64,000 nt of DNA, taken from the NCBI GenBank assembly GCA_030264375.1, contig JASCQW010000162.1, forward strand, positions 115,196,357 through 115,260,356, written 5' to 3'. The DNA comes from Carcharhinus longimanus (taxonomy: Eukaryota). The notes under the pieces were generated by a model, which did no database searches, was not told the DNA's origin, and worked only from the letters and a program-made list of their open reading frames with translations. How positions within the stretch are numbered: the first letter of the stretch is position 1; every line of letters begins with the position of its first letter. This document shows, piece by piece, positions 8,643 to 57,541 of the stretch. The translations under genes were made by a program, and so were the position numbers.

Positions 8643-10245
8643 TGGCAGGACTTCCTTCTGAGTCTCACCTTGCATTACTCCCGACATTAAGTTGCTTTGG
8701 GGCAGCCATTTAGCCTGGTGAGGGGTTAGCTGGGATCACGGCACTCTATCAAATCCAGCCCTTTTGTTTCTTCCCTATATTAGTGGTGTCCTAAAAGGGA
8801 CACTTGTAATGATTCTTTCAGTGATTCTGAGACAACCTACTGGTGCACCAAAAAGGTCCAGTCCAGNNNNNNNNNNNNNNNNNNNNNNNNNNNNNNNNNN
8901 NNNNNNNNNNNNNNNNNNNNNNNNNNNNNNNNNNNNNNNNNNNNNNNNNNNNNNNNNNNNNNNNNNTGCACCAAAAAGGTCCAGTCCAGAAGCACCGGAG
9001 ACAATTGTAGTGTTTCTACAATAGCCTGCCTGATGCCATTTTACTCAGCACAGGCAGGGATTGAACTCTTGTCATCTTGCTCTATATATCAGCTACTCAT
9101 TGGATGATCCTGTTGGATCAATGTTGGTGTCCGAGTGATTCAGTGACAACAATGTTCAAAAGCTTTAGGTCTGAGCCTAAGGGATGTGAGCGTACCTCCT
9201 AATGGTGATTTGGGAATCTCACGATTCGGAGTCAATGCGAAATTGAATCCATACTTTATGTAGTGGTCTTTCCATCAATGGTTTGACGCACATCTTGATC
9301 TAGCAGCTCTCTGTATAAATGCCAGGAGATACAGCACAACTCTGGGCCATTTTGACACTATCCATTTGTTACCCATTCAAAAAGGCTCCATCTATGTGAT
9401 ATGCGTGCATAGTGAGTTTGTATTTTAATTTTCATTACAACCAGCTCAACAAATTCTGTTTAATTCTGTTCTATAGCTATCATGATATCAAACCAGTGGA
9501 ATCAGTATTTCAGAAGATTCTGATGGCAAAAATCAGAAAATGCCAGATTGCTTTTTTTCTCTTTTTTAGTTTTTGTTTGTACTTTGACGCCCCCAGCGCC
9601 TGCCCGCATGCATTGAAAACAATAGTTTGGTATCACCTGCTGGAGGAAGACTTTTTAAACAGAAGTAAAATTTGAATAATGTATTTTAAAATGAGCTAAA
9701 ACTGTATTTCAGTAGATATGCTTTGTTGGTCATTTAGACAAAGTCAAGTTTAGTAATTCTGTGCTTTGGCCACTGGACACAGTGAAAGGGCAATGCAGCT
9801 CACTGTCACAGATGCATGGCTGTGGTTGCAACTCTTTCGGTTACACCTCAAGGGCGAGTTAGTGGCAGAGGCCGGTTCCTTACAGGTATTTGGATGCAAC
9901 TGCATACCTGACCTTTTGGTAACAAACTGTTTTGCAGGAATAGTCTAGGGCGGGATGGGCTCAGAGATAAAATAATAAATTCGGAAAAAAATTACACATA
10001 GTCCAATAAAAATATTGGATCAAGCTTGTGCCTGCCTGTAACTTGAAATATTTCCAAGTAGGTGTAATCGTTATGCAGTCCCACCACAACTCCTTGTTCA
10101 TGGTTGTACTTGTTTACTTGCAAAATGTGAAAAGCCCCAGAGTTAATATATTGCAAGTCATCAAGCGTACAAAAAAAGTATACTTTCTATTCGCTCATCT
10201 GTGTGTATTTTGTGACAGAAAATCTCTTTTGTAAGTGAGATTCTT

Positions 10246-12295: not shown

Positions 12296-12377
12296 ATGCT
12301 ACTAAAGAAAATGGACCTGTTGAACTATCAGTACTNNNNNNNNNNGAGCAACAATATGGGCATCCTTTGCTTCGAAG
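12296..12377 (+). CDS. VGLL4: VGLL4 coding exon 1 (MLLKKMDLLNYQY[xxxx]SNNMGILCFEG), phase 1
   Basis: Matches recalled vertebrate N-terminus MLFMKMDLLNYQYLDKMNNNIGILCYEG; the 10-N gap preserves frame; donor G|gtaaga at 12378. Confidence 0.88.
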
Positions 12378-12965
12378 GTAAGACTCCCAACTTGTTTATT
12401 ACCCTCCCCTCCCCTCGCAATCTAAAGTATGTTGATCTGTTGCTGCTAACGTGCGTGTGTGTGTATATTTTCTAAGCTTATCCTGTCATATTGCTTTGAC
12501 TCTCAACTTGCTTCTATCCTTCCCTCACTATCCAAAATATGTTGGTCTGTTGTAGCTGTTTATATATATATTTCCTAAACTTATATATATAAAAATAATA
12601 CTTTGCTTTGACTCAACTTTGTTTTTACCCCCATCTAAAATATGTTGAATCTGTTGCTAACATTGTATATGTATATATTTATATTTCCTAAGCTTAGCGT
12701 GTCTTATATATATTTTACATCCTTTGCTTTGATTCCCAACATGTTTTTACCCTCCCCTCAGAATCTAAAATCTGTTGCCGTTCAGCTTGTGTGTAATGTT
12801 TGCTTAACTTAGTCTATATATTACACCCTTTGCCTCAAAGGCAAGACTCCCCATTTGTTTTTACCCTCCCCTAAGAGTGTAAAATGTGTTCGTTGCTGTT
12901 AATGTTGTGTGTATGTATAAATATACACATTGTATTTATTTCAGTTAGCTTGTCATATATATTTA
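12361..12965 (+). repeat. Degenerate minisatellite, ~5 units of 105-140 bp, spanning the exon-1/intron-1 junction
   Basis: Recurring ctttgc...gactcccaac.tgtttttaccctcccct...tctaaaatatgtt...tctgttgct...tatattt.ctaagctta at ~12361, 12490, 12601, 12718, 12824. Confidence 0.8.
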
Positions 12966-15900: not shown

Positions 15901-18033
15901 GATGCAATAATTGATTGGCTTAAGAGATAGTACTTCTGATTTACGCGAGTGATTGTGCTTCAAAATGGATGTTGAAACACATATATTTAAAAAAAACCTT
16001 GTCTGATGACAGACAGAAAGGAGTTGGCTGAATAATGATGTAGTGAGAGTATTCCAGAGCTGTGGAGGAAGGGTGAGAAGGATTCCATTTTAAAAGGGAA
16101 GGATGGCCAAAAGTACAGAAACATCTGTAACTGAAAGTCTTGTATATACTATAATGCTATAAACAATTATATTATAAATTGTTTTGGAATTTAAAATAAA
16201 TTGCATTTATAGTTTTACATTCTGAAATGCAACCTTCAGTCAAGCTTGTTGCATTATGTTTACCCCAGTGTCAATCCCAAGTTTTCATTGTTGCTTAACT
16301 GAGATCCTAATCATATGCACTAAGTTTATGTTAACTCTCCTACCCAGTGATGTAGTAATGGCTTGGATGTGTACAAAGTGAGGGAATGCTGTTTTGTTTG
16401 GGGGGCGTGGGGGGAAGAGGGCGGGTGAAGGAGGAGGAAGTCAAACTAAAGTTCAGTTTCACTTTCTGCCAAGATTAAGTCACTACATTTCTTTTAAGGT
16501 TGCTAAAATCCTAGTGGCATTATTTTTTTGAATGCCAGCTCTGAATTGCAGCTTGTGATTTAATGAGTAGAATGTGAATCTGAATCCAGATAAGCTTTCA
16601 CTTTACACTTGCATCAAACTAACTGAAGTTTAGGCATATTAAGGTACCTTGATAAAAGGCCTACATAGGGGTAAAATGTGAAGCATCCAGATAAAATGAC
16701 TATCTGATCACTTATTTAATTGTGCTTATGTACAAATTGACTTTAATTATTCCTCCATTATGATGGTGACTACATTTCAAAAGTACTTCATTGGCTGAAA
16801 AAGAAGTCTGGATTATCCTGCGTTTATAAATAATACTTTTGTAAATGCAGGTCTTCTCCTTTCGTCTTTGGCATTGTTATTAGTACATTTATGTAACAAG
16901 GTATAATTCTCATGTAAGCCATTTTTGGTTGGATACTGTCTTAAACACATTTTTATCTTTTGTTTACTGCACATTATTTTGGCGGGAAGCAAAATCCGCT
17001 TAAGCCAGAGGGGTCCTGTTCTGGAAAACCTGATCTGCAACTTTATGCAAACTGACTTGACATCTTTATGTTTGCTGCTTCATCTCCCTGCAAAGGGATA
17101 AACAAGGAGGTCATTTTTGGTGCTATCAGCAGTGATCTGAGCTGTGTTTTTCAGTTCCAACAAACCTGGAACAAATTTAAATGGAGTAGAGAGAGGCAGG
17201 GTAGAAATAGAAAAAGACAAAAAGACTGGTTGTGCAAACAACAGTGAGCTTTGTTAAACTACAACTGAAATTAAAACCGAAAATTTACTCATGCATAAGC
17301 CTGTATAATTTCCATCTGTTTTGCATGAGAACAATTTCTCATTATATTTTGATTTGAGACCAAATGCAGATATTACACTCTTCTTTGGCAGCTGGGCCAG
17401 AATTCACAGTTAAGTGTGCTGTTACATCAAGCAATTGCTTAAGAATGTGATTAAAATCAAGTTCAGCAGTCTTGCTTCCATAATTGTGGCAAAAAATTGA
17501 AGTAGCCAGATGGTCAATCTTTATCTAAAATTGGCCAGCACACATCAAAAAAATTTAAGGTTGTGTTGAAAGCAAGATCTAGCTGAACTGAGAGTCCAAA
17601 ACACCAACCATATTTGTGTTGTTTGTACATAAATAATCCTTAATTGACTATGTAAACATCCCCTAATTTTGTTGTCATTTTCAGTTATTTTGAATATAAA
17701 AAGCCTTAACCCTTTGACAAAAGGCATTTTCTTCTATTTGTTTTTAAATGCATTAAAAAAACTTTTGTTAATTATGTAGACATCCCCCAATTTTGTAGTC
17801 ACTTTTTCAGCTATTTTGAATATTTCAGGGTTTTTTTCAGTTTTAAAGCCCAGCCCTGCAACAAAGACATCAACTTTTTGGTTTTGAAATGCAAAAACTC
17901 TCAACTTTTTTTTTCGCAATTTAATGTTTATCTNNNNNNNNNNNNNNNNNNNNNNNNNNNNNNNNNNNNNNNNNNNNNNNNNNNNNNNNNNNNNNNNNNN
18001 NNNNNNNNNNNNNNNNNNNNNNNNNNNNNNNNN

Positions 18034-19780
18034 ATTTTCTCCTCACCTCAGTTCTAAAAGGTTTACCCCTTATCCTCAAACCATGACCCCTAGTTTTGGA
18101 CTCCCCCACTATCAGGAATATTTTTTCTGAATCTACCCTGCCTAATTCTGTTAGAATTTTATGAATTTCTGAAATCCCTCCTCTTCCTAAACTCCAATGA
18201 ATGTAATCCTAACCAACCTAAACTCTCTTCATATGACAGTCCCACCATCCTGGGAATCAGCCTGGTAAACATTCGCTGCAATCCCTCTAAAACAAGAACA
18301 TCCTTCATCAGTTAAGGACATCAAAACTGCACACAATCCTCCAGGTGTGACCTCATCAAAGCTCTGTGTGATTGCAGTGAAAAAAAATCCTTATTCGGAA
18401 GCTCAAATCCTCTCACTGAGGGTCAACATACCACTTGCCACCTTTATTGCCTGTTATACCTGCTTACTTTCAGCAACTGATGCATGAGGACACCAATCTG
18501 CCTCCCTATTTTGATACCAAAGTGGGTAACCTTGCATTTATCCATATTGTACTACATCTGCCATGCATATGACCACACACGCAGCATGTCCAAATCATGC
18601 TGAAGCATCTTTGCATCCTCTGCACAGCTCACCCTCCCACCCAACTTTGTTTCATCTGTAAATTTGGAGATAATACATTTAGTTACCTCTTTCAAATCAT
18701 TAATATATAATGTGAACACTTGGAGTCCTAGCACAGATCCCAGACACTAGTCATTGACTGCCAATTGGAAAGCAACCCATTTATCCCAGCTCTTTACTTC
18801 CTGTCTGCTAACCAGCTTTCTATCAACCTCAAAACACTACCCGCAATCCTCTGCGCTTTAACCTTACATATTTCAAAGATGTGCAGCTTAGGCGGGATTG
18901 GCCATGCTAAGTTGTTCCTTAGTGTCCCAAGATATGTGGGTTAGGGGTATTAGCTGGATAACCGCATGTGGTAAGCGGATAGGGCAGGGGGTGGGCCTGG
19001 GTAAGATACTTTGTTGGAGATAGAGCTGGTGCAGACTCGGGTGGAATGGCTGCCTCCTGCACTGTAAGGATTTTATGACAGTAATCTGCTTTGTGAGACC
19101 TTGTTGAAAGCCACATCCACTGATTCTACCTGGTCAATTCTACTGGTTAGATATTCAAAGAATTCCAATAGATTTGTAAAGCATGATTTCCCTTTCATAA
19201 ATCCATGCTGATTTTGTTTGATTATCCCACTGCTTTCTAGATGCTGTGCAATGAAATTCTTGATAATGGACTCTGGTAACTTCCCTGGTACCGATGTTAG
19301 GCTTACTGATCTGTAGCTCCCTGTTTTCTCTCCCCCTCCCTTTTTGAATTTACATTAACTACCTCCAATCTGTAGGAACCATCCCAGAGTCCTTAAGTAT
19401 TCTGAGATAAAGATTGTCAGACCCTGGAGATTTATCCTCCTGCAATCCCATTAATTTCCACAAAACCATTTCTCCTCTACGAATACTGATTTCCTTCAGC
19501 TCCTCACTAAAACATGTGTTTCTCAGAACTTCTAGTACATTATTCATGTCTTCCTTTGTGAAGACAGAAGTAAAGTACAAATTTAGTTCCTCAGCCATTT
19601 CTTTGTTCCCTTGATTCTGACTATAAGAGGCCTGCATTCATTTTTGTCAATTTTTTTTTCCCTTCTGTACCTTTAGAAACTTTTACAGTTTTACTTTCAT
19701 ACTTGAAAGTATTAATTTTCCCCTTAATCCCTTGGTCTGCCTTTGCTGAATTTTAAACTGCTCTCGACCCTCAGGGCTAT
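18034..19780 (-). mobile_element. CR1-clade LINE ORF2 (RT) fragment, decayed, with SINE 3' half inserted at ~18873-19078
   Basis: - strand ORF pieces: MAEELNLYFTSVFTKED, DKSPGSD, VPTDWR, FTLYINDL...ISKFTDETKLGG, KTRGHGLRIRGKPFRTEVRR. Confidence 0.88.
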
Positions 19781-20097
19781 TGCTTTCTCTTGCCAATCTA
19801 TTTTCCTCCCTTCTCTCCCCATCTCTCCCTTTCTTGCATCATCCTTCCCCTTCCTGCCCTCTCTCCTGCTTGGCTTTATCACATTAGAAGAAGAGGGATG
19901 CTACTTTATGACATATGAACCAATCCTTGGCCCCTGAACAATTAAAATTTGTCTCCAAACCACAGAATTTATTTACTTAGCATAAGATAATCATTTGCAT
20001 TTATTTTGTTTTTTTTATTTGGTTTGCTTCTTTTAATTCCATGCTTCCTTTGGCATTGTCGACTTTTGTTTTATTTTCTTTTGCTGATGCATAAAAG

Positions 20098-20304
20098 GCG
20101 GGCACACCAGCTACAAAGATCTCACCAACCAAAAGTAAGCCACAGCCACCAGCCTCCCTTAAGCGACCTACAACAGCTGCTACAAGCCCCAATAAAAAAC
20201 TCATTGCGTCCACTTCAGCTACGACAGCAGCCTCTACTTCTAAGCGAGTTTCTTCTAGTCTGGTGCGGTCTTCCTCTGCGAACACCAAAGACATGAAACC
20301 AAAG
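20098..20304 (+). CDS. MAP4: Isolated MAP4-like (microtubule-associated protein 4) Pro/Ser/Thr/basic exon inside VGLL4 intron 1
   Basis: 207-nt open phase 0/0 exon; polypyrimidine tract and AG at 20096-20097; donor AAG|gtaagg. Encodes AGTPATKISPTKSKPQPPASLKRPTTAATSPNKKLIAST...SSSANTKDMKPK, resembling the recalled MAP4 segment ...KAKTQPTSLPKQP...NKKPMS...SKDVKPK. Confidence 0.62.
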
Positions 20305-21384
20305 GTAAGGGTTGGAAGTGGATGGACTGGGAGTGTGTGTCAGGTCCGAATTTTGTTTTCCTTTTCCTCAATGGATTTGAAATAAATTAGCTCCCTTCCT
20401 CGCAATGGTTTTTTTGGCTAAATTTTACATATTCAATTCCTCGTCTGTGTTGAGTTAACTGATGTCAGCTGGGACAACAATAAGGACTGCTTGTAATTCA
20501 TCTTGCCCATGCTTCTGAGATGGGGATTCAGGAAAGTCAGCTAAGCTTGTTGCTCCTATTTTCTACCTCTTGGCTCCCATTGGTTATGGCTCCACCTGAA
20601 AGTAGGATCAGCCTTGACAGTAATATTCCCCAGAGTTAAATAACTCCTGCATAAAGAGTGAGTATTACAGTGTACCCCAACAAGGAGTCAGTTAAGATAA
20701 ACAAGGAGGGACAAAAGATAGGTCAATGGGGCCTAAGGCAATTGGATAAATAAACTATTATACCACTGAAGGGGTATGATGTTGGGGAGCCAAAGACAGA
20801 ATCTATTTGGTTAAAATTGAGGAACAAAAGGGAAGCTATTATGTTTGCCAGTAAACATTAAGCCGTCAAATAGTGGAAAGGATTTACAAGAACAAATTTG
20901 CAGGTAAATTACAGAAAGGTGGAAAAGCTATGGAGTACTTATAATGGGTATTTCACAAATTCTAGAGACTAGGATAGTAGCAGTATAAAGTGGGGGAGGA
21001 ATTCCTAAAACGTTCAAGAGAACATTCTGGATCAGTGCATTCTAGCTTAACAAAAAAGGAAGCAGTGCTGGATCTAGTTCTGGTAGGAAAATTGGAACTT
21101 CATTCAGCGGGTGAGCATTTGGGAAAGAGTGATCATAATATCAAATTTAGAAAAGGACAACATGCAATCAAATACAGAAATACTTAGCTGAAAGAAGGCT
21201 ACAGTGAACTCAGAAGGAATCTTTTGATTTGGATAAAATCAATTGGCAAAACAGCAATTGAATAATGAGAAGGCAGTCAAAGAGGAGATGGTTTAGATAG
21301 AGTACACACATTCCTATGAATGGGAAAGGCAAGTGCATCCAAAGCTACAGCTACCTTGGTGACTAAAGATGCATAGGTTAAAAT

Positions 21385-21537
21385 CAGTAAGAAGTCTCTC
21401 AACACCAGGTTAAAGTCCAACCAGTTTGTTTGACAGTAAACCCACAACCTACTATCAAATAAACTGGTTGGACTTTAACCTGGTGTTGTGAGAGTCCTTA
21501 CTGTGTTTACCCCAGTCCAATGCTGGCATCTCCACAT
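21385..21537. mobile_element. Hairpin-shaped PLE-end insertion with 14-bp TSD
   Basis: Arms caacaccaggttaaagtccaaccagttt and aaactggttggactttaacctggtgttg are exact reverse complements; direct repeat taggttaaaatcag at 21374-21387 and 21538-21551. Confidence 0.85.
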
Positions 21538-22254
21538 TAGGTTAAAATCAGGCAGAAAAGTAAGGCTTATGATTGTAAAGTTTATAATCCAGTAGAAAAT
21601 TAAGCTGTGTAGGAAGAACAAAAGGGATCCAGTAAAGTTAGAGGGGCAAAGATGGAATATGAAAATAGATTAGCAGCTCACGTAAAAGGGAATCCAAAAG
21701 GTTTCTATAAACACAGGTAGTAAAAAGATAGCTAAAGCAAAGGTAGAGTCAATTAGGAACCAGAGGATATATCTGAAGTAATGAATGAGCATCAAGTTAA
21801 CACACACAAAGGAAAGCAAACGGCATTTTAGCCTTTTATGCAAGGGTTGGAGTATATAAGTAAGGAAGTCTTGCTGCAATTATATAGGGCTTTAGTGAGG
21901 CCACACCTGGAGAATTGTCTACAGTCTTAATTTCCTCCTTTGACAAAATACTTGCCTTAAAGGAATGCAGTTAAGTTTCACTAGATTGATTCCTGGGTTG
22001 AGTAACTTATGAAGAAACATTAAGTAGAATAAGCCTATACTTTCTGGAGATTAAAGGATGATCTCACTGACATGTAAAATTCAGAGAGGTTGTTTTTCCT
22101 GGCAGAAGAATCTAGAACTTGGATTTGAAGATAAAGTGTTGGCAATTCAAGACTCAGTTGAGATTTTTTCACTCAGAGGGTTGTGAATTTTTGGCATTCC
22201 CTATCACAAGAGGTTGCTAAGTACATGTGAGACGGAGTTTGATACTTGCAGGAT

Positions 22255-22600
22255 ACTGTGAGGTCTGGAGAGAGTGGACGTGGAGAGTATGTTTCCACTA
22301 GTAGGAAAAGTTAGAATCAGAGGGCACAACCTCAGGCTAAAGGGACAATCTTTTAAAACAGATGAGGAGGAATTTCTTCAGCAGAGAGTGGTGAATTTGT
22401 GGAATAGTTTGCTGCAGAAGGCTCTGGAGGCCAAATCAGTAAGTGTCTTTAAGACAGAGATAAATAGGTTCTTGGTAAGGGGATCAGGAGTTTTGAGGAA
22501 AAGGCAGGAGAATGGGGATGAGAGAAAAGTCAGCCATGATTGAATGGAGCAGACTTGATGGGCCAAGTGGCTTAATTCTGCTCCCCTGTTTATGGTCTTA
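22255..22600 (+). mobile_element. Younger CR1 LINE 3' end
   Basis: DVESMFPLVGKVRIRGHNLRLKG...QRVVNLWNSL...FKTEINRFL plus tail cagccatgattgaatgg...gcttaattctgctcc. Confidence 0.85.
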
Positions 22601-22604
22601 TACC

Positions 22605-22870
22605 TGGCTCAGTGGTTAGCACTAGTGTCTCTCAACATTTGATTGAGGCTTTGGGTCACGATTAGTGTGGAGTTTGCACATTCTCCCCATGTCTTGTGGG
22701 TTTCCTGAGCGCTCTGGTTTCCTCCCACACTCCAAAGACATTTAGGTTGGGTGGATTAGCCATGGTAAATGTTACAAGGAAAGGGCCTGGATAAGATGCT
22801 CTTTTGGACAGTCAGAGCAGACTTGATGGGCCAAATGGCCTCCTACACGTAGGAATTCCAAAGTTCTATG
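22605..22870 (+). mobile_element. HE1-like SINE (tail type B)
   Basis: tggctcagtggttagcact...gtgtggagtttgcacattctcccc...gcagacttgatgggccaaatggcctc. Confidence 0.75.
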
Positions 22871-25800
22871 GATAGATTTCTGGCTACTAAGTGAATCAAG
22901 AGGTGCAGCAATAAACAGAAGTTGATGCATCTGTTCATTCATTATCTTATTAAGGGGTGCATGCTCTACTCCTATCTGAGATATTAGTAGTTAGCATCCA
23001 CTTCTCTAGTGAAGACAGGTGCAGTCAATCTGGCAATAAATGAAGAGGTATTAGCAATATTGTATTATTAATAATAATGAAGAGGATATACTAATTAGCT
23101 TGGTGTTCCTCAAAGTTGAAAAGTTTCCTAGCCCAGATGGGACACTAAGTTATTAAGTGCAGTAAAGGTGGAAACTGCAGAGGCTATGGTCACAACTTCC
23201 TCCTGGGATATGGAGGTGCCAAAGGACCGGAGGAATGCAAATAACACGTCCCTAGTTAAATATGTGTGAGGGATAATCATAGCAACTGCAAGCCTGTCAG
23301 CCTATCATTAGTAATGGAAACATTCTTAGAGGCAGTATTCTGGGATAACATTTATTAGCATTTGGAGTATGGGCTAATAAACGAAGGCACAGATTTGCTC
23401 ATGGCAAATTGTTTGACTGAATTGCTCGGGTGCTTTCATAAATGTTGATGAGAATAGTGCAGTTGGTGTGTATAAAAAGACAGACATTTGATAAATCGTC
23501 TAAAGATTTCTGTGAAATTGAAGGCCAAGGAATTAAATAGAAGCAGCATGGAAGCAAAATTGGCTTGGGACCAGGAAGTGGAGATTACTAGTGAATGATT
23601 GTTTTTCAGAATGCAGGGAAATATACAGGAAAGGCAAATAGGAATAGATTTCAGAAGGACAAAGATGGGCTAGTTAAAAAGGACAGATGCAATTTACCAG
23701 TAGTATGAGGTGATATATTTGGCTGGAAGAATGAGAAGAGACAATGTGAACTAAATGATGCAATGTTAAAGGACATACAGGAACAGGATATGGTTAGTCT
23801 CAGCCTAACATTACATCCAAATGACAACAACTCCAAAAGTTGGGCATGAATGATCGGAACAGGTTGAAGATGAGATCAAAAGGGCTGAATGCACACAGCA
23901 TCCTCTCCTCCTGAACTTTATTATGGTAATTTCACAACTTTTGTGCCATCACAGCATTCCATCTATCACTGGTTGACAAAGTCAAAGGCTCTTACATTGC
24001 TAAAGTGCCATTGATTGCTGCTGTGTAGCTCTTCCATGGTAACAATGATTGCCCATGGTCAACAGCATTGTTCTGCTGGAACAAACAGCCCTCTAGTGTT
24101 GCCTTTAAATGCACAGATCCATGTTAGCTCATATGTAAGCTTTCAGTTGAGCACTGCTTTCATGAAAGAAATAGCTGAATGTTGCAATGAAAAGACAATA
24201 GGAGTTGGACTGGTGGGTTAGCTTAAACCCAAACAACTGTAGTTTGAATTTAATGTTTATCTAAACATTGGATAATTTTATCTGATGGTAATGTTAGCTT
24301 CACTAGTTAATAATCATTGCCATACATCATCGTATTTCAATAAATGTTTTACGGGTTTTCTATTTTTAAAATAATTGTACCCAGAGACACTGTTCCTTTT
24401 TATGTGGCAGTGTGACTGGTGGAGTGGTTCCCACGCAGGAAAATGGATCAGGACACAGAACTTAGCAGCTGCAAATATAAATAGTCCTGAGGCAAATTAT
24501 TCTATATACATATTAAAATATGATACAATTTCTTAGTTGTATAGAGGTGAGTCTTATGCATACATTGCTTCTGTACAGATCCCTGGACATATTTGTCTTA
24601 GGACATCTGGTGTGCTTTGCAATTATATTTTTCCATTGCTTGCTGTGGTATCTTTTGAAGGCTATCACAGTAACTGTGGTCTGCCCAGATTAAATCATAT
24701 GGAGCTGACTGAGAATGCTGACAGTTCCTTTCTACGCCTCCCCCCACCCTTCTTTCCTTTTTCCTGCTGAACACAGCCAAAATATTGGCTGCAGCTGAGG
24801 ATGTGCAAATGTGCAGTAGTTATTAAAAATAGGTTTTGGAAAAACATAAATTATTGTAAATGCATAAAATGTGGCAGTGGAAGAAGCAGCATGCTCAGGA
24901 AAAAAATGTGTTGTCATGGACTTAAAAATGCCTTGCATTCAGAAACATGCATTTTGCTTTGTATGGTTAGTTGAAGGTAACTTGCACTGAACCAAGATTT
25001 TAGTAAATCAAATTATTGCTGTAATTGATACCTTGTACATATGTGTTTGTAGTTGCTAGGAGTTGCTAGTGCTGTTGATCTGTTAATGCAGGGATGTCAC
25101 CTGTGGTAATCTCAGTGAAATCCAGTTTGCACTTTTTATATTTGTTTTAATGTCTTTATCTTGAAGGTTGGAATGTTCAGTTGGTTCAGTGGTTGCTTCA
25201 TTAGTTGGATAAGTTGTCAGTTGGAACACTTGGGGATTTCTTAAGTTTCCACAACTCAAGATGTGTGACTATTAACGTGATTTAAACTGGATATCTACCC
25301 TTGGAGGCTTAATGATGTCCAGAAACATTATTGTTTGGGCACCTCTGTGCTAATATATTGAATGTTGAAAGAGCAGTGCTGTTGGTTCCCATTTAGTGTA
25401 ATGCATTGCCTAGGTTTTTGTGCCTTTAAATTTTTGGTACCCATTTTGGGACTATCATACCTCATACAAACATCTGATTCCCTTTGATTTAAGCTCTGTA
25501 ACCTGATTATAGCATCTCCATTTTGCTTCTGAAGTTTCAACAGGTCCCATTTTATGTTCAGTTAATGCTTTTGATGGACCCTGTCTGGCACATTTTTTTT
25601 GTAGCTTTTTCACATGTGTTGCGGGGGGGGGAAGAGCTTCCTTCCTAGGGAGCAAAAGTAACTTGGCAAACATCAGGTTAAAGTTCCATGGGGAGGAGGG
25701 GTGGAAATTCTATACATAGCTGTTCAGCTGGGCAAGGGAATACATATAATTGAATTTTTCTGCCTCAAATGAATAAGCAGTCAGGAAGGAAAAATTGGAA

Positions 25801-26633
25801 ATGCATCAAAATGTTGCCTGGTAATGAGACTGATGACTCGTAAAAAGTCACATGAATATCCTGCATGTGGAATGTGTAGTATCTGGGTCTAGAAGACAAA
25901 AACTAAATTAAATGTATTCAAACTGCTGCTGAAGCATTAAAAAAAGGTCTAGCTTTATCGGAGTGTTTCTTGCCAAAATTATGATGTCATTTTGGTTGCC
26001 ATGGAGTGTGGTTAGACTGGAGGAGACAGCCCAGCCAGTAAAATAGGACATTTGTTTGGTGAACTGCGCTGTGGTTTCCCCTCACTGAATGCAATGGGGA
26101 AAACTATCAACAATAAATCTCTTGAATGTTCAGCTCTTTTTTTTTTGTTTTTTTGTAGCTTGAGGAAGAGGTGTGGGCCTTGTCGCAGATTTGGTACATG
26201 CTCTTATTTTTCCCATGTAGGCAGGGCGTGTGAGCTTGCTTGGAGTTTGGTTTTTATGCCTACGTATATATACTGTAGAACATTAACTGTGTCCAATAAA
26301 CTTGTAAAGTTTAGTTTGGCAAGCTGTTTTTCCCTCTGCCACAGCCCTTACTGTGCGGAAAGAAAAACAACATTTCCCACAGCAGCACGAGTTATATATT
26401 TCATTGCAGTAAAGCAAAGTAGCAAATTTTAAGCAAAATGGAGAGTTTGGTTACACTTATACTTTTTAAGAGTGTGAATACAAAGATATTGAACAAAATT
26501 AATGTACTTGAATGAAGTCTTTAATGTGCAGCATTTTTTTTACGTGGTCTTCTCACAGTTAGATGGTATTTGCAACCTGCTATAGGAAGGATGATGTTTG
26601 AGAGAATAATTTTGTTAAACATTTAATCCATAG

Positions 26634-26820
26634 GTGAAGCTGCACTAAGGAGTGACGGTAGGATGCAGTCAATCCCAGTGTCCTCTGCGCTTACCAACCA
26701 TCGCACAGGACCTCCACCCATCAGCCCCAACAAGAGGAAGTACAGTGGGGACCAGGGAGGTGATGATATGGAAAGTGAGAATGAACATGCCTCTAAAGCA
26801 AGCAGGTTATATGTTCAAGT
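26634..26820 (+). CDS. VGLL4: VGLL4 coding exon 2 (GEAALRSDGRMQSIPVSSALTNHRTGPPPISPNKRK...), phase 1/2
   Basis: tag|GT acceptor, GT|gtaagt donor, 187 nt; conserved HRTGPPPISPxKRK motif. Confidence 0.93.
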
Positions 26821-29800
26821 GTAAGTATTTCTTGACTAGAAGCATTCCATGTGCTGAAAACTAAGAGTTCTTTTGCTACGTCAGTTACAGAAGATGGAAC
26901 TGATTGGAATGGATTAATCCTGAATGAAGAGCAGATTCAGCAACAACTAGGATTCACATTTTTAGTAAAGCCTGTCCTTTGAACTCTAGTATCTGCACAC
27001 ATCTTTACTTGGGTCCTTCTGCTGATTTTACTAAGTAAAGTTTTTAGCAGGAAAATGGCTTGGGGATTAAAAAAAGCTATTGACTAAATAGTATACTTGC
27101 CCAAATACTGTCTGTGCACAAAGCACTGTCCATCATTATCTAACACAAACGTGTCTAGTCTATTCAAACTCCAGCTGTCAAAATTGTTATCCCCAAGGTT
27201 ATCATTTTAATTTTCCAGTGGAAAATCAACATTTTCTAATACCTTTTTTGCAGTGGTTGGGTGGGGAGGTGGAGATGGATATGAAATATATTGTCCTCTG
27301 AAATCTCTGTTTATCTACTGTTATCTGGTTTATTTCTGCTCTGTCTTTCTCAAATACTTTGTGCATACTTGTATGCCATACTCCTCCTCCCAGTTTGAAA
27401 CATGGCTTTACACACACCATGAGTCCTTCCTCAGCTTGTCACACATTGCATTATACCCCTACTGTATAATCTAATCCTTGCCTCCCCAGCCTGTCACATG
27501 GCATTGCTCAGGATACATGGCATTGCGTCATGGATTCTTGATTCCCTTTCATTTTGTTTTGAATAGCAGTCATTCCCTCCCCATGGTTAGTCTGCAGCGT
27601 TGTGATTCTTTATACACGTTGCACAGTTTCTCTTTTGTATTTCAGAGCTTGATCTGCACTGCACTCTGTTCACCTTTTCTACCTCTAGTAGACTATGTTG
27701 TAACATCTACCATCTATAGGGTGCACTGCTTCACCCAGCTTACTTTGACAGCACGTCCCAACCCTTTAATCTCATCCTGATTAGACAATGCTATGGGATC
27801 ACCTCTAAGTGCCACTTCATGTCTCACAGTATTATCATTTGGCTGTGTACTGCTATTCCTTCATCTGTGCTTGCTACAAATCCTGGACTTACCTCCTAAC
27901 ACTAATGCAAAGCAGCATCTCATGAACTGGAGCATTTTAAGGAGAAACCCTCTGTCCCAAGAAGGGATAATTGATGAACGATTTAACATCACCTATATTC
28001 AGAGAGCAAAATTAAAAAATCATGCAATGTTTCCTTACAACTTTTGAGTGTTAGATGGCTTACACTTGTACAAAACCCCCCGCAACTCCCTGCCACCTTC
28101 ACCACCCCCACCAATTCCTAAGGATTTCTGTATGGGAAAGTTAGCATGAGAAAAATATATTTCAGGTTTTGCTTGGTTAACAGGCAAGTATGCTGGAGAA
28201 CAAAATAGTTTTTATGTATCTAAACTAGCTTTTATGTACCTAAAATTATTGTTTGTATATTAATCGTCCTAAATGATGCATTTAATAGAATCTGAACTGG
28301 GTTCAAGAAAATGGAGAAAGCTGAAGAGTTGTTCTCCTCTCTAGTTCACTGTCAGAATGTAGTCCCCCCATTAGCCAATGAATGGAATTTTCCACACATG
28401 AGTTTAAATGCTCATTTATGCAGAGGAAAAAAAGCATTCAGGGTTTTTTAAGTGGCATTATGTGATAAGACTTAATTTTTTTCTGCTTTTGAACCTACTT
28501 GATCTGATCTTGAATCTTTATTCCACCCCCAACAACAACAACCGCCACCACCACCTGACTGTTAATTCCTGGCTCATTCTCCAGGAATCTTGCTAATTTC
28601 TGAAGTTGACTAGTGCCTCAATTATTTATGTATCTGGTTAGAGTGTGAGGCCTTTCAGTCCAGGGATAGGCCAGGGAAGCCAACTATATCCTTGTGTGAC
28701 GTTGAAACAGTTTCACTGTTGGTTAAGAAGTTAATTAGTGAAAATCTTAGTTTCCTTGGCTTAGTGGAGTTACAGCAGTGCATCCTATACATAGTAAATG
28801 CTGAAGCACAGTTGCATAGCACTACATCATTCAAATTAGAATTAGTCTCATTCCTGATCTGTGTTGAAATTGTGTCTCTCAAGCTAAATAGAGCTCAATT
28901 GGCATTAGTGTTTGGGAGCTAAACATGGGGGTGAAAATAAAAATCAGCTTTGGTTACCACTCCAGGTGGCTACACCAGTAAGCCCTGGTGAAATTACATG
29001 TTTTGTGGACATTCACTATGATTTGATGGCCCCGACAGTTACTAAGTCAAATAATGGCTGCTGCATAACAATTCCACAGGTGGCCACAGCGAGCCTCTGG
29101 TATCTAGTCCCTGAATGAGCCCTTCCTCTAAGCCACAATAGGTGAAGGTTTGTAGAAGAATAACATGAATTAGACGTAAAAATTAATTGTACTTTTTATC
29201 CTGCGGATACTGATGCTGCTTTCGCCAAATCTCAGTTTCACTTCACAATATAGGTGTAAGTACTGTACCACTGTTTACTAGACAAGTATAGAACTCATTT
29301 TAATATGTATGTTTTTTTGTGAACAAAGCCATTCACTGTGCTCTTGTCATCAAATTGTAATGAATATTGAAGCATTCTTGTTTTTGGAAATGCAACAGCT
29401 AAAATTCCTTAATGGGAAATTTACAGGTTTTCAATAGGACAGCCAATTTCCTCTAACTCTGGGGAATTATCCAGATACTTTATGCACTTTATTCTTACGT
29501 CTATTTAGTCCTGTGGAGAATGCCTGGGATGAGCTCTTCCAATTGTTTAGCTGATTGTGCATACAACCCAGAGTGGAAGTGAGCCATACAGATCTGGATA
29601 GTCTTGTTATTAATCCCTAATGTGCGCTGAGTCAGCAGATAATCAGTTGGGTGGCACATAATTGTTTTTGGTTAACTCTTTTTGGTTTGGGTGTGGGGGA
29701 GGGGGTGCTCATGCATGATGATGTTGGTGGAATTCATTATATCCACCTTTGCTGGAAGGTATTTGTGTGGAGACATCGTTGGTCTTGGTTGTGACATCCT

Positions 29801-43274: not shown

Positions 43275-44890
43275 ATGTAAGAACATAAAGGGGAGCAAGA
43301 GAAGACCACGTGATGTCTTGAGCTTGCACTGTTACTTAGTAAGATCACGCTGATCTGATCTTGACCTCAATTCCACTTTCCTGCCTGTCCCCCATAACCA
43401 TTGATGCCTCTATATTTCAAAAACCTGTCTAATTCAATCTTGAATATATTTCATGATCCAGCCTCCACTGCTTTGGGGGAGAGAATTCCAAAGATTCACA
43501 ACCTTCGAAGAAGAAATTCTTCCTCATCTATCTTATATAGGAGTCACCTTATTCTGAAACTCTATTCCCTAGTTCTAAGTTTCATGAAGGGAAACATTCT
43601 CTGAACATCTACACCATCAAGCCCCATTGGGATCTTGTATGTTTCAACAAGAGCATCTCAGTTCTCAAACTCCATGAGTATAGGTCCAACTTGCTCAACC
43701 ATGCCTCGTAAGGCAACCTTTTCACTTGAGCAATCAACCTAACGAATCTGTCTGTACTGCATCCAATGGAAATATACCCCTCCTTAAAAAAGACCAGAAC
43801 TCTGCACAGTAATCCAAGGGTGGTCTCACTTGTGCTTATAGCAAGACTTTGCGAGTTTAATGCAAGAGAAATGGAGTACAAAGGCCAACATTAAATTTGT
43901 TGCCCCTGCATGTGAAGTTTTCATATTATAGATCCCTTTGTACCTCAGCATTTTGTAGTCTCTTTCCGTTTAAATCATCTTTCATTTCTGTGTATCTGCC
44001 AAGTGGACAACCTCACATTTTCCCACATTATACTCCATTGGCCAAATATTTGCNNNNNNNNNNNNNNNNNNNNNNNNNNNNNNNNNNNNNNNNNNNNNNN
44101 NNNNNNNNNNNNNNNNNNNNNNNNNNNNNNNNNNNNNNNNNNNNNNNNNNNNNTGGACAACCTCACATTTTCCCACATTATACTCCATTGGCCAAATATT
44201 TGCCCACTCACTTAACCTGTCTACTTCTCCTTGCAGATTCTTTGTATCCTAGCTTTTCCATCTAGCTTTGAATCGTCAGCAAATTTGGCTGCAATACACA
44301 CAATCCCTTCATCCAAGTCATTAATACAGATTGTAAATATTTGAGGCCCCAACACTTGATCCCCTGTGGCACCCCACTAGTCTCAGTTTGCCAACCTGAA
44401 ATTGACCCATTAATCCTGCCTCTCTCTCTCTATACTGTTAGTTAGCCAATCGTCTTTCTATGTTGGTATATTACTCTTAACACTGAGCTTTTATTCTGGG
44501 CAGTAACCTTTTATGTGGCAACTTTTATCGAATGCCTTTTGGAAATTCAAATAATTTCATCTGCTAGTTCCCCTTTGTTCATCCTACTTTTACATCCCCC
44601 AAGAACTCTCATAAATCTGTGAAACACGATTTCCCTTTCTCTGTCTGATTGTATTATGATTTTCTAAATGTCTTGTTCCTAGTTACAGAATAATGGATTC
44701 CAGCATTTTGCAATAACGGATGTTAGCCTAACTGGCCTATATTTTCCTGCTTTTTGTCCCCTTCTTGGAATAGCAGCAATATATTAGTGGTTTTCAAATT
44801 TGCTGGGACCTTTCCAGAATCTAGGGAATTTTGCAAGATAATAATTTGTGCATTTTCTCAACAAATACTTATTTCAAGACTCTAAGACAC
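43275..44890 (-). mobile_element. CR1-clade LINE fragment, decayed
   Basis: WPMEYNVGKCEVVH, RLPYEAWLSKLDLYS; tail at the left end (aagaacataaagggagcaagag...). Confidence 0.8.
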
Positions 44891-54700: not shown

Positions 54701-57260
54701 GATGCAAATATATTCTCCTAATAAGCAACCACGGAAGCTGAATCAATTATCCTTTGAGTTGAAATTCATGGTCTTACCACTCCCTATCTTTAACATCCAT
54801 TAACTCTGTGTCCAGCTGCTGTTTTCTTCTGTTCATCACTGACGCCTGTACCAATCAACCCTAAGCTCTGGAATCCCCCCTCTGCATATATCCTTCCCTC
54901 TACCTTTCTTTCCTCTTTTAAGTTGCTCTTTAAAACCAGTGTCTTGGCCAAGCTTTTCGTCATTTGTCCTAATATCATCTTATGTAGGTTGGTGTTAGTT
55001 TTTGTTTGACATTCCTACAAAGTGTGTTGGAACAATTGATTATGTTTAAAGACACTCCATGTGCAGGTTGTTGTCTGTACAAAGTAAGTTTGATACTTTT
55101 TTTTAAATGGTAGCAAGATGAAGTGCATTGAGTATGGGACTACAGCTAGCAGTTGTTAGGTCAGATTGTCCTAGGCTGACTTTGCTCATCTCAAACCATT
55201 CATTTCCTCCTCACCATCCATCTCTCATTCCTTACCAACATTCCCCATATTGCCAGAACTGTCTCATCTCTCCTTTGAAAATCCATTCTGCAATTAATTT
55301 CAAGTCTGACACCTCTCAACATCTTTCCTTTCGAGTTAATAAGTAACTTCTTGGATCTAAAATTACCTCCACCTCGTGCTCCCCATAGCACTGCCCCTAA
55401 ATATAGGGACCCCTGTCCAATTAATGTTCTCCTCCTCCTACTCTGAAACTGTTAACATGCAAGCTGTTGCTACATATGAGGATTTTCCTTGGAACAAACA
55501 CCTTGATCAAGCAGTTGCTGGAAATCCTCAATCCCACAATTCACATTCAGAACTCTTCTGTCTGTTTTTGCCCAGGGGGTGATGGGCAACTCAGTCTGGC
55601 AACATGAGATGGGTAGTGGGATGGTGATGGGCAATGCTTGCCCTCCAATCTGATCTCAACAGCCCTCTGCGATTTCTGTACTCTACAATTGTAAATTTCA
55701 AAACATCTCTGCTACCAAATTCGGGCTCCATTTCTTTGCTGTTAAACCCTGCACCATGCTGTAATTGTTCCAAATCCCTCGTCTAATACAGCAGATTTTT
55801 TTGTACACTTTTTTAGTTTCCCCCAATCACAGAATCCCCTGGAAAGCTGTGCCACCTGCTGTTACCAAAGCCCAGGATCTCTTCCCTGACATTCTTCTAA
55901 AGCTTGAAGGTCTTTGTATTCCTTTACTCAGTGCCATTAAATACCAGCCTCCTGAACTTCCTTTGAAAAGAAAATGCTGAATGGATCACTTCTTGAATAG
56001 AACTCACTTTCAAAAAGGTTAAGAGCCAAAATTGAATACACAAGTAAAGAAATATATAATCATGGCAGTTTTCATGAGCAAATGGATAGTGATGGAATTT
56101 GATCCCAAAATCTGAGAGCACCTTGTTAAAAGAAATGAAATTTGACTTGATCATTCACTGTAAATCAGGATTCTTAGTATGTGGTATAGCAAAACCACAT
56201 TATTGCAAAATGTTGTAACCTCTTCCAGTTCATGGAACAATGCCATGGAAGATTGAACATTGTCTGTGAATTTCTTTATTGTGTTCATGTAAGCTGAAAA
56301 AAAATCCTGTTTTCTAATGTTTTATAGATTTCACCTACCGCTTGAATTTTTTAATTTCACTGCCCTCACACCATTTTCCCGTTTCTCCTGTACTGACAGC
56401 ATTGACTCCTTTTTAAGTCTGATTGCAGCTGTATATTATTTCACGTGTCCAATGACACAGTGAATATAGGCTAGAGTGAGCCAGAGCCTCTAGAAGATTT
56501 ACAATCATAAGTGTCCTCTGCTTAGAGAAGCTAGCACAAAACAACATACGCAACCAGTTCTTGTATGCACCGTTTGCGGTCTGGAAAGATTATTCTCAAG
56601 GAGTTACTGGCATTGAAAGAGGGGCTAGTATTTATGTACTGTTCAATCTGCCATCCCTGGACTTGTTTGTTCTTGATTGGTGAAGTCCGCTCAAAATATC
56701 ATCACAATCAACAACAAAGCATTACTAGATGGAATTCAGAACAGGTTTCTATTAAGGAAAATACCCATTACAACACTGCTCAGAACAGGATAATTGTTGT
56801 AATCAACAGTTGGAAGTCGATTTTGGTACAGTGCTGTTTGTAATCAAGTGTTTGACGTTATTCCATAATGGCAAATGTATAGAACGGAATTTTCTGGCTG
56901 TGCTTGCCCCAAGGCTGAAAAATCCCACCCAAGGTCAACAAACCGTTGCATGATCCATGTCCTACCCTCTTTGATTCCCATGGCGGGCAGGACAGGAAAA
57001 ATCCCACACGTGATTTGTAATGAGTGCCTCCTTTGTAAAGTTAAGCTATTACAGGGTATGGAGCAAAGGAATATGGGATTAGCCTACGCCTATTCTTGAG
57101 TGGATGGTGTGTGAAGCTTAAGTGACCATAAGATATTTTCATCGTTGGTGTTTCAGATTTTTTTCATTATACTAGGAACAAAATTTGAGAAAAGCTTACA
57201 CTTGACATGATTCCTTCCAATACCATCCTCTACTAACTTTTAAATTTTGTTTTTAAACAG

Positions 57261-57541
57261 CCTCCATAACTACTAATACAGCTTGTGATCCTGTTGTGGA
57301 GGAACATTTTCGCCGAAGCCTTGGAGAGAGGTACAAGCAACCAGAGCCTGTGACAAATTCAGTTTCTATCACAGGGTCAGTAGATGATCACTTTGCCAAA
57401 GCTCTTGGAGAAACATGGCTTCAAATCAAGGCTGCCAAAGATGGAGTTTCGAGCAGCCCTGATTCTGGCTCAAGAAGAGGACAGTCCTCCCCTTCGTCCC
57501 ACATGGTCAATCACAATCACTCCCCTTCAGTCGTTTCATGA
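57261..57541 (+). CDS. VGLL4: VGLL4 last coding exon with both TDU (Tondu) motifs
   Basis: aaacag|CC acceptor, TACTAAC at 57231-57237; CDPVVEEHFRRSLG and SVSITGSVDDHFAKALGETWLQIK...HSPSVVS*; total CDS 891 nt = 296 aa. Confidence 0.96.

Follow-up and report, generated by a model that had tools for sequence, protein, structure and literature searches.

The MAP4-like exon at 20098-20304 of the window (the whole stretch of 64,000 nucleotides of Carcharhinus longimanus DNA analysed here), which appears to lie within intron 1 of VGLL4, is almost certainly there as an assembly artefact, in which two loci were joined at a shared 22-base word (24247-24268). The headline reading of the initial annotation was a LINE-associated duplication that created a switch for nonsense-mediated decay (NMD) in VGLL4; our analyses do not support this reading, since the MAP4-like gene on scaffold C61 of the same assembly lacks the exon and the join has no contig support. 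In the animal, there is probably no VGLL4 poison-exon switch of the kind proposed. The following features carry the argument:

12296-12377, plus strand: presumed VGLL4 first coding exon, with ATG at 12296, a phase 1 donor and an internal 10-N gap
17918-17933, plus strand: final bases of the upstream VGLL4 contig, matching 24247-24262 exactly, where the true intron would continue
17934-18033, no strand: 100-N scaffold gap forming the left edge of the foreign piece, with no sequenced junction
18034-24246, plus strand: foreign piece of 6,213 bases with the MAP4-like exon, to judge from the run contigs almost certainly misplaced in VGLL4 intron 1
19073-19637, minus strand: decayed LINE reverse-transcriptase remnant in the foreign piece (RVT_1; high repeat depth)
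20098-20304, plus strand: internal coding exon of a shark MAP4-like gene, 69 codons, phase 0/0
21364-23028, plus strand: high-copy repeats in the foreign piece, comprising a short interspersed repeat and LINE-like remnants
24247-24268, plus strand: shared 22-base AT-rich word, taken as the chimeric junction, which closes with a 7-2-7 inverted repeat of 16 bases
26634-26822, plus strand: VGLL4 exon 2 (PF15245, E 5e-18)

Judged by sequence comparison, the exon itself is an ordinary internal exon of a shark MAP4-like gene (MAP2/MAP4/Tau family). Its open frame spans 207 nt in phase 0/0, behind a pyrimidine-rich acceptor that ends in AG and ahead of a GT donor, so that the initial description of 69 open codons with good splice signals is confirmed. 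Its peptide, searched among longer proteins, found 15 matches, all from sharks (12 species) and all with PF00418, at E values of 1.6e-23 to 1.7e-16; the similarity to MAP4 is thus far above chance, and the initial MAP4 call proved correct. The source names of 11 of the 15 proteins are MAP4-like. Identity to the exon peptide is 77-93% as listed by the search and 79-93% after realignment, residues 1207-1275 of Mustelus asterias LOC144495654 showing 93% over the 69-residue peptide. In all 15 proteins the peptide is an internal segment with the same two flanking segments around it. The exon peptide on its own has no Pfam match; its place in the protein is a Pro/Thr/Ser-rich region ahead of the tubulin-binding repeats, four of which are recognised by Pfam in the Mustelus MAP4-like protein P0002. 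As initially stated, the window holds no other MAP4 exon that tblastn of the full shark MAP4-like protein could detect.

The apparent host gene was confirmed as VGLL4 by matches to PF15245 at 26636-26821 (E 5e-18) and 57260-57517 (E 1e-11), while 12296-12377 is what we take to be VGLL4 exon 1, from its position and the human sequence. On paper, splicing the MAP4-like exon after 12377 yields 13 codons followed by the stop TAA at 20136-20138; the frameshift and premature stop were thus calculated rightly in the initial annotation, but they describe a hypothetical transcript, and a literature search pairing 'VGLL4' with 'poison exon' found nothing. The first coding exon contains a 10-N gap at 12336-12345, a sign of thin read cover, and is directly followed by a diverged tandem-like repeat (12382-12913; 65% identity, offset of about 116 bases).

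The join was examined in contigs assembled from individual runs, which drop rare variants and show presence, not absence, so that a rare joined form could escape them; they were aligned to 18034-28000 (four runs) and to 23750-24900 (X4, X1, X8 and X11, from four studies). Among the 21 runs listed, all of them in contig form, the RNA-type runs X14-X21 contained 0.10-0.19 of the sequence words and carry no weight in either direction. Across 18034-28000, where repeats swamped the joints and loose ends, the contigs among the pieces listed share a single breakpoint. In X1 and in X5 (pieces listed), one contig matches 22818-24268 and then runs on for about 800 bases unlike the window, and another matches from 24247 with 1,045-1,150 unlike bases ahead of it; the latter, right-arm contig of X1 extends, among the pieces listed, through VGLL4 exon 2 to 27984. 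X6 was too fragmented at the junction, with no contig reaching it among the pieces listed. Around the junction itself, none of the four runs (X4, X1, X8 and X11) contained a contig or joint bridging 24247-24268. In all four, the left arm passes 24268 into one common sequence that is not the window's, with one or two letters differing between runs, and in X1, X8 and X11 a second shared sequence leads into the VGLL4 arm, the whole 22-base word being kept at both loci. X4 shows no differences from the window at the junction, and its left arm proceeds through 24268 into non-VGLL4 DNA with no branch; since X4 may be the source of the window, it is not independent. The true continuation of its left arm is present as a 41-base stub only, and its right-arm contig starts at 24258 with neither a loose end nor an upstream link. 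These observations are what a chimera predicts, namely no contig over the join and other, consistent partners for both arms. A poison exon would have to lie in its host intron, whereas the word is bridged in 0 of 4 runs, and the VGLL4 arm connects to 17917 in 3 of 4.

In these runs, what stands before 24247 was compared by eye with 17888-17917 of the window, on the upstream side of the scaffold gap: X1 agrees throughout (30 of 30 letters), X11 is shorter by one T and X8 carries a diverged form. Moreover, the 16-base identity between 17918-17933 and 24247-24262 is a match of which about 1e-4 would be expected by chance in that contig. Given that the VGLL4 arm is preceded by the 17917 side and that the two ends share these 16 bases, VGLL4 intron 1 runs from 17933 to 24263, a direct link that comes from X1, X8 and X11, each about 1% or more different from the window. 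The intron would measure about 7.9 kb and not 14.3 kb. Two further gaps of 100 N, at 8867-8966 and 44054-44153, have adjoining contig ends that overlap exactly, by 23 and 50 bases, and hence probably do not represent missing DNA; in both, the following contig opens with the overlap, whereas at 17934-18033 the overlap lies 6.2 kb inside. Hence, the contig 18034-44053, initially described as gap-free, is indeed free of N, but its continuity does not reflect true linkage, as it is with little doubt chimeric at 24247-24268. The alternative of a chimeric contig, which had been raised at the outset, is thereby supported, the run contigs leaving the window's path on both sides of the word. Its suggested route, a join through repeats, was not borne out: a join at the LINE remnants was neither seen nor needed, and the actual one lies about 3.9 kb downstream of the exon.

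We propose that, in a short-k de Bruijn graph (we infer both the assembler and a k of about 21), the shared word would make the two loci cross. As both correct exits were weak in X4 (the 41-base stub and the unlinked start at 24258), the wrong path was probably kept, and the scaffolder would then have placed the true upstream VGLL4 contig ahead of it with a 100-N gap between. Simple arithmetic puts the number of 22-base word pairs that agree by chance in a 2.7-Gb genome at some hundred thousand, so that no biological cause need be invoked for the shared word; the perfect 7-2-7 inverted repeat at 24253-24268 that closes it is probably likewise due to chance. The full word occurs once in the assembly, so the search revealed no reciprocal chimera with it. 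The left arm's continuation past 24268 gave no match in the assembly by exact-pattern searches and a local scan, which does not show that it is absent; consequently, the foreign piece is tied to the C61 gene by protein order and a retrocopy, and not by DNA overlap. Exact overlaps between the foreign piece and the ends of C61 or C148 contigs consisted of repeat words only, none of them informative. A 90-base stretch, 23590-23679, is present in the window and in X4 and missing from X1 and X5 (pieces listed), an indel between individuals or species.

The gene to which the exon belongs was sought by mapping P0002 to the genome under a stricter first-pass setting, with which weak matches may be missed. 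The protein can be followed exon by exon on C61:34.64-34.89 Mb, with two segments missing: residues 1173-1213 fall on C148 and residues 1205-1276 in the window, on C162. Neither exon was found by tblastn in the 62-kb C61 interval where both belong, and this interval contains 18 N-gaps, one of them of 5,214 N. To the question posed initially, whether the true MAP4 locus has the exon, the answer is thus that the C61 gene lacks it and shows N-gaps there instead. A DNA search of the assembly found the window to hold the sole full copy of the exon; the other two matches belong to one deleted retrocopy, at C175:15331299-15331739. This processed retrocopy of a MAP4-like mRNA, with five exons, internal deletions and stops, joins without introns the C148 exon, exon 20098-20304 (96 bases of which are missing) and three C61 exons, at 89-99% identity, which indicates that these exons once formed one mRNA in this lineage. 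The C148 exon ends in phase 0 and the following C61 exon begins in phase 0, which fits a phase 0/0 exon between them. Given this, together with the retrocopy and the lack of the exon on C61, we conclude that the exon most likely fills the hole in the C61 gene; in the animal, it would be spliced in frame between the C148 exon and the next C61 exon. The upstream neighbour, at C148:43698543-43698671, stands alone in a 7.3-kb contig between gaps, and its placement is probably a second misplacement. Weaker matches to the C-terminal part of P0002 (51-67%), at C32:1767886-1782404, C190:3634577 and C154:38306239, are probably other genes of the MAP2/MAP4/Tau family.

Because the repeats from the exon to 22818 are not covered by any single contig, it is only by extension that we infer the foreign piece to be MAP4 intron DNA throughout; this open span has no effect on the exclusion of the piece from VGLL4. 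The two oppositely oriented CR1 LINE remnants initially reported in it fared unequally. On the minus strand, 19073-19351 matches RVT_1 with E 2e-6 and 28 bits, just below the curated cut-off, which favours a reverse-transcriptase remnant, while the plus-strand remnants resemble decayed LINE frames by eye only. Two of the three LINE pieces had no Pfam match, including 22262-22540 on the plus strand, and the CR1 label is presumptive. For the unique DNA at 23029-24268, no second near-identical copy was present among the 40 matches listed. Single-contig depth in X4, over the pieces listed, was 5.2-9.1 in the foreign piece and 6.9-7.4 in VGLL4 DNA, and this similarity argues weakly against a second copy of the piece.

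The window could also be read literally: a genomic MAP4 piece of 6.2 kb would recently have inserted into VGLL4 intron 1 in this individual or species, its target-site duplication being 17918-17933 and 24247-24262, and the exon would act as a poison exon when included. The 16-base direct repeat flanking the piece does resemble such a duplication, there are LINE remnants inside, the exon is undamaged and its phase differs from that of the intron, and the direct VGLL4 link is not seen in X4. We nevertheless regard this as very improbable. In 4 of 4 runs the left (donor) arm has all 22 bases of the repeated word, followed by another continuation, so that the word belongs to that arm and, unlike a target-site duplication, did not arise as a copy of the VGLL4 site; X4, identical to the window, enters non-VGLL4 DNA past 24268 unbranched; and the left edge of the piece is a scaffold gap rather than a sequenced junction. 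Moreover, a fresh insertion should have a parent copy, and none was found in the assembly, the C61 gene lacking the exon, though its gaps could hide one; the depth is not doubled either, which is a weak argument. We give an equally slight chance to a fresh 6.2-kb copy of the MAP4 exon on one chromosome only, dropped by the run contigs, which would be a new frameshifting poison exon in a repressor of the Hippo pathway. Were an insertion true, it would show cleanly how exon capture can give rise to a new NMD switch. What the initial annotation had itself named as evidence against its reading was largely found, as the MAP4 locus is without the exon and the run contigs lend the join no support.

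Alternatively, the MAP4-like gene may truly be spread over C61, C148 and C162, its mRNA being made by trans-splicing. Two consecutive exons on two other scaffolds, yet spliced together in the retrocopy, are what this would produce, but the 18 gaps in the C61 interval can hide both exons, so trans-splicing is not needed; furthermore, the C162 placement fails in 5 of 5 informative runs (for X5, in the pieces listed), and the exon occupies its expected position in annotated proteins from 12 other sharks. We consider this explanation extremely improbable, more so than an insertion.

An assembly chimera at the 22-base word has no biological import, as both genes look ordinary. It serves as a warning for this assembly, in which an N-free stretch does not prove true linkage: two consecutive MAP4-like exons probably stand on wrong scaffolds, and other findings of a foreign exon in an intron here need the same testing. 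A cheap check for such misjoins is to ask whether the final bases before a gap recur deep within the next contig.

Short shared words can yield chimeric contigs in short-read de Bruijn assembly, and the present case has the same traits: a crossing at a 22-base word, a displaced arm whose end, at a gap, retains part of that word, and a gapped donor gene. It differs from the join at long LINE remnants that was suspected initially, the crossing having occurred at a short word shared by chance. SR-protein genes provide familiar examples of poison exons coupled to nonsense-mediated decay; the likeness of the exon to these consists in the frameshift and the stop that its inclusion would bring after 13 codons, whereas it differs from them in lying, in the runs examined, outside the VGLL4 intron and in being conserved coding sequence of another gene. 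Compared with the shark MAP4-like genes of Mustelus asterias (LOC144495654) and Carcharodon carcharias, whose proteins carry PF00418, the exon is the same and only its assembled position differs.
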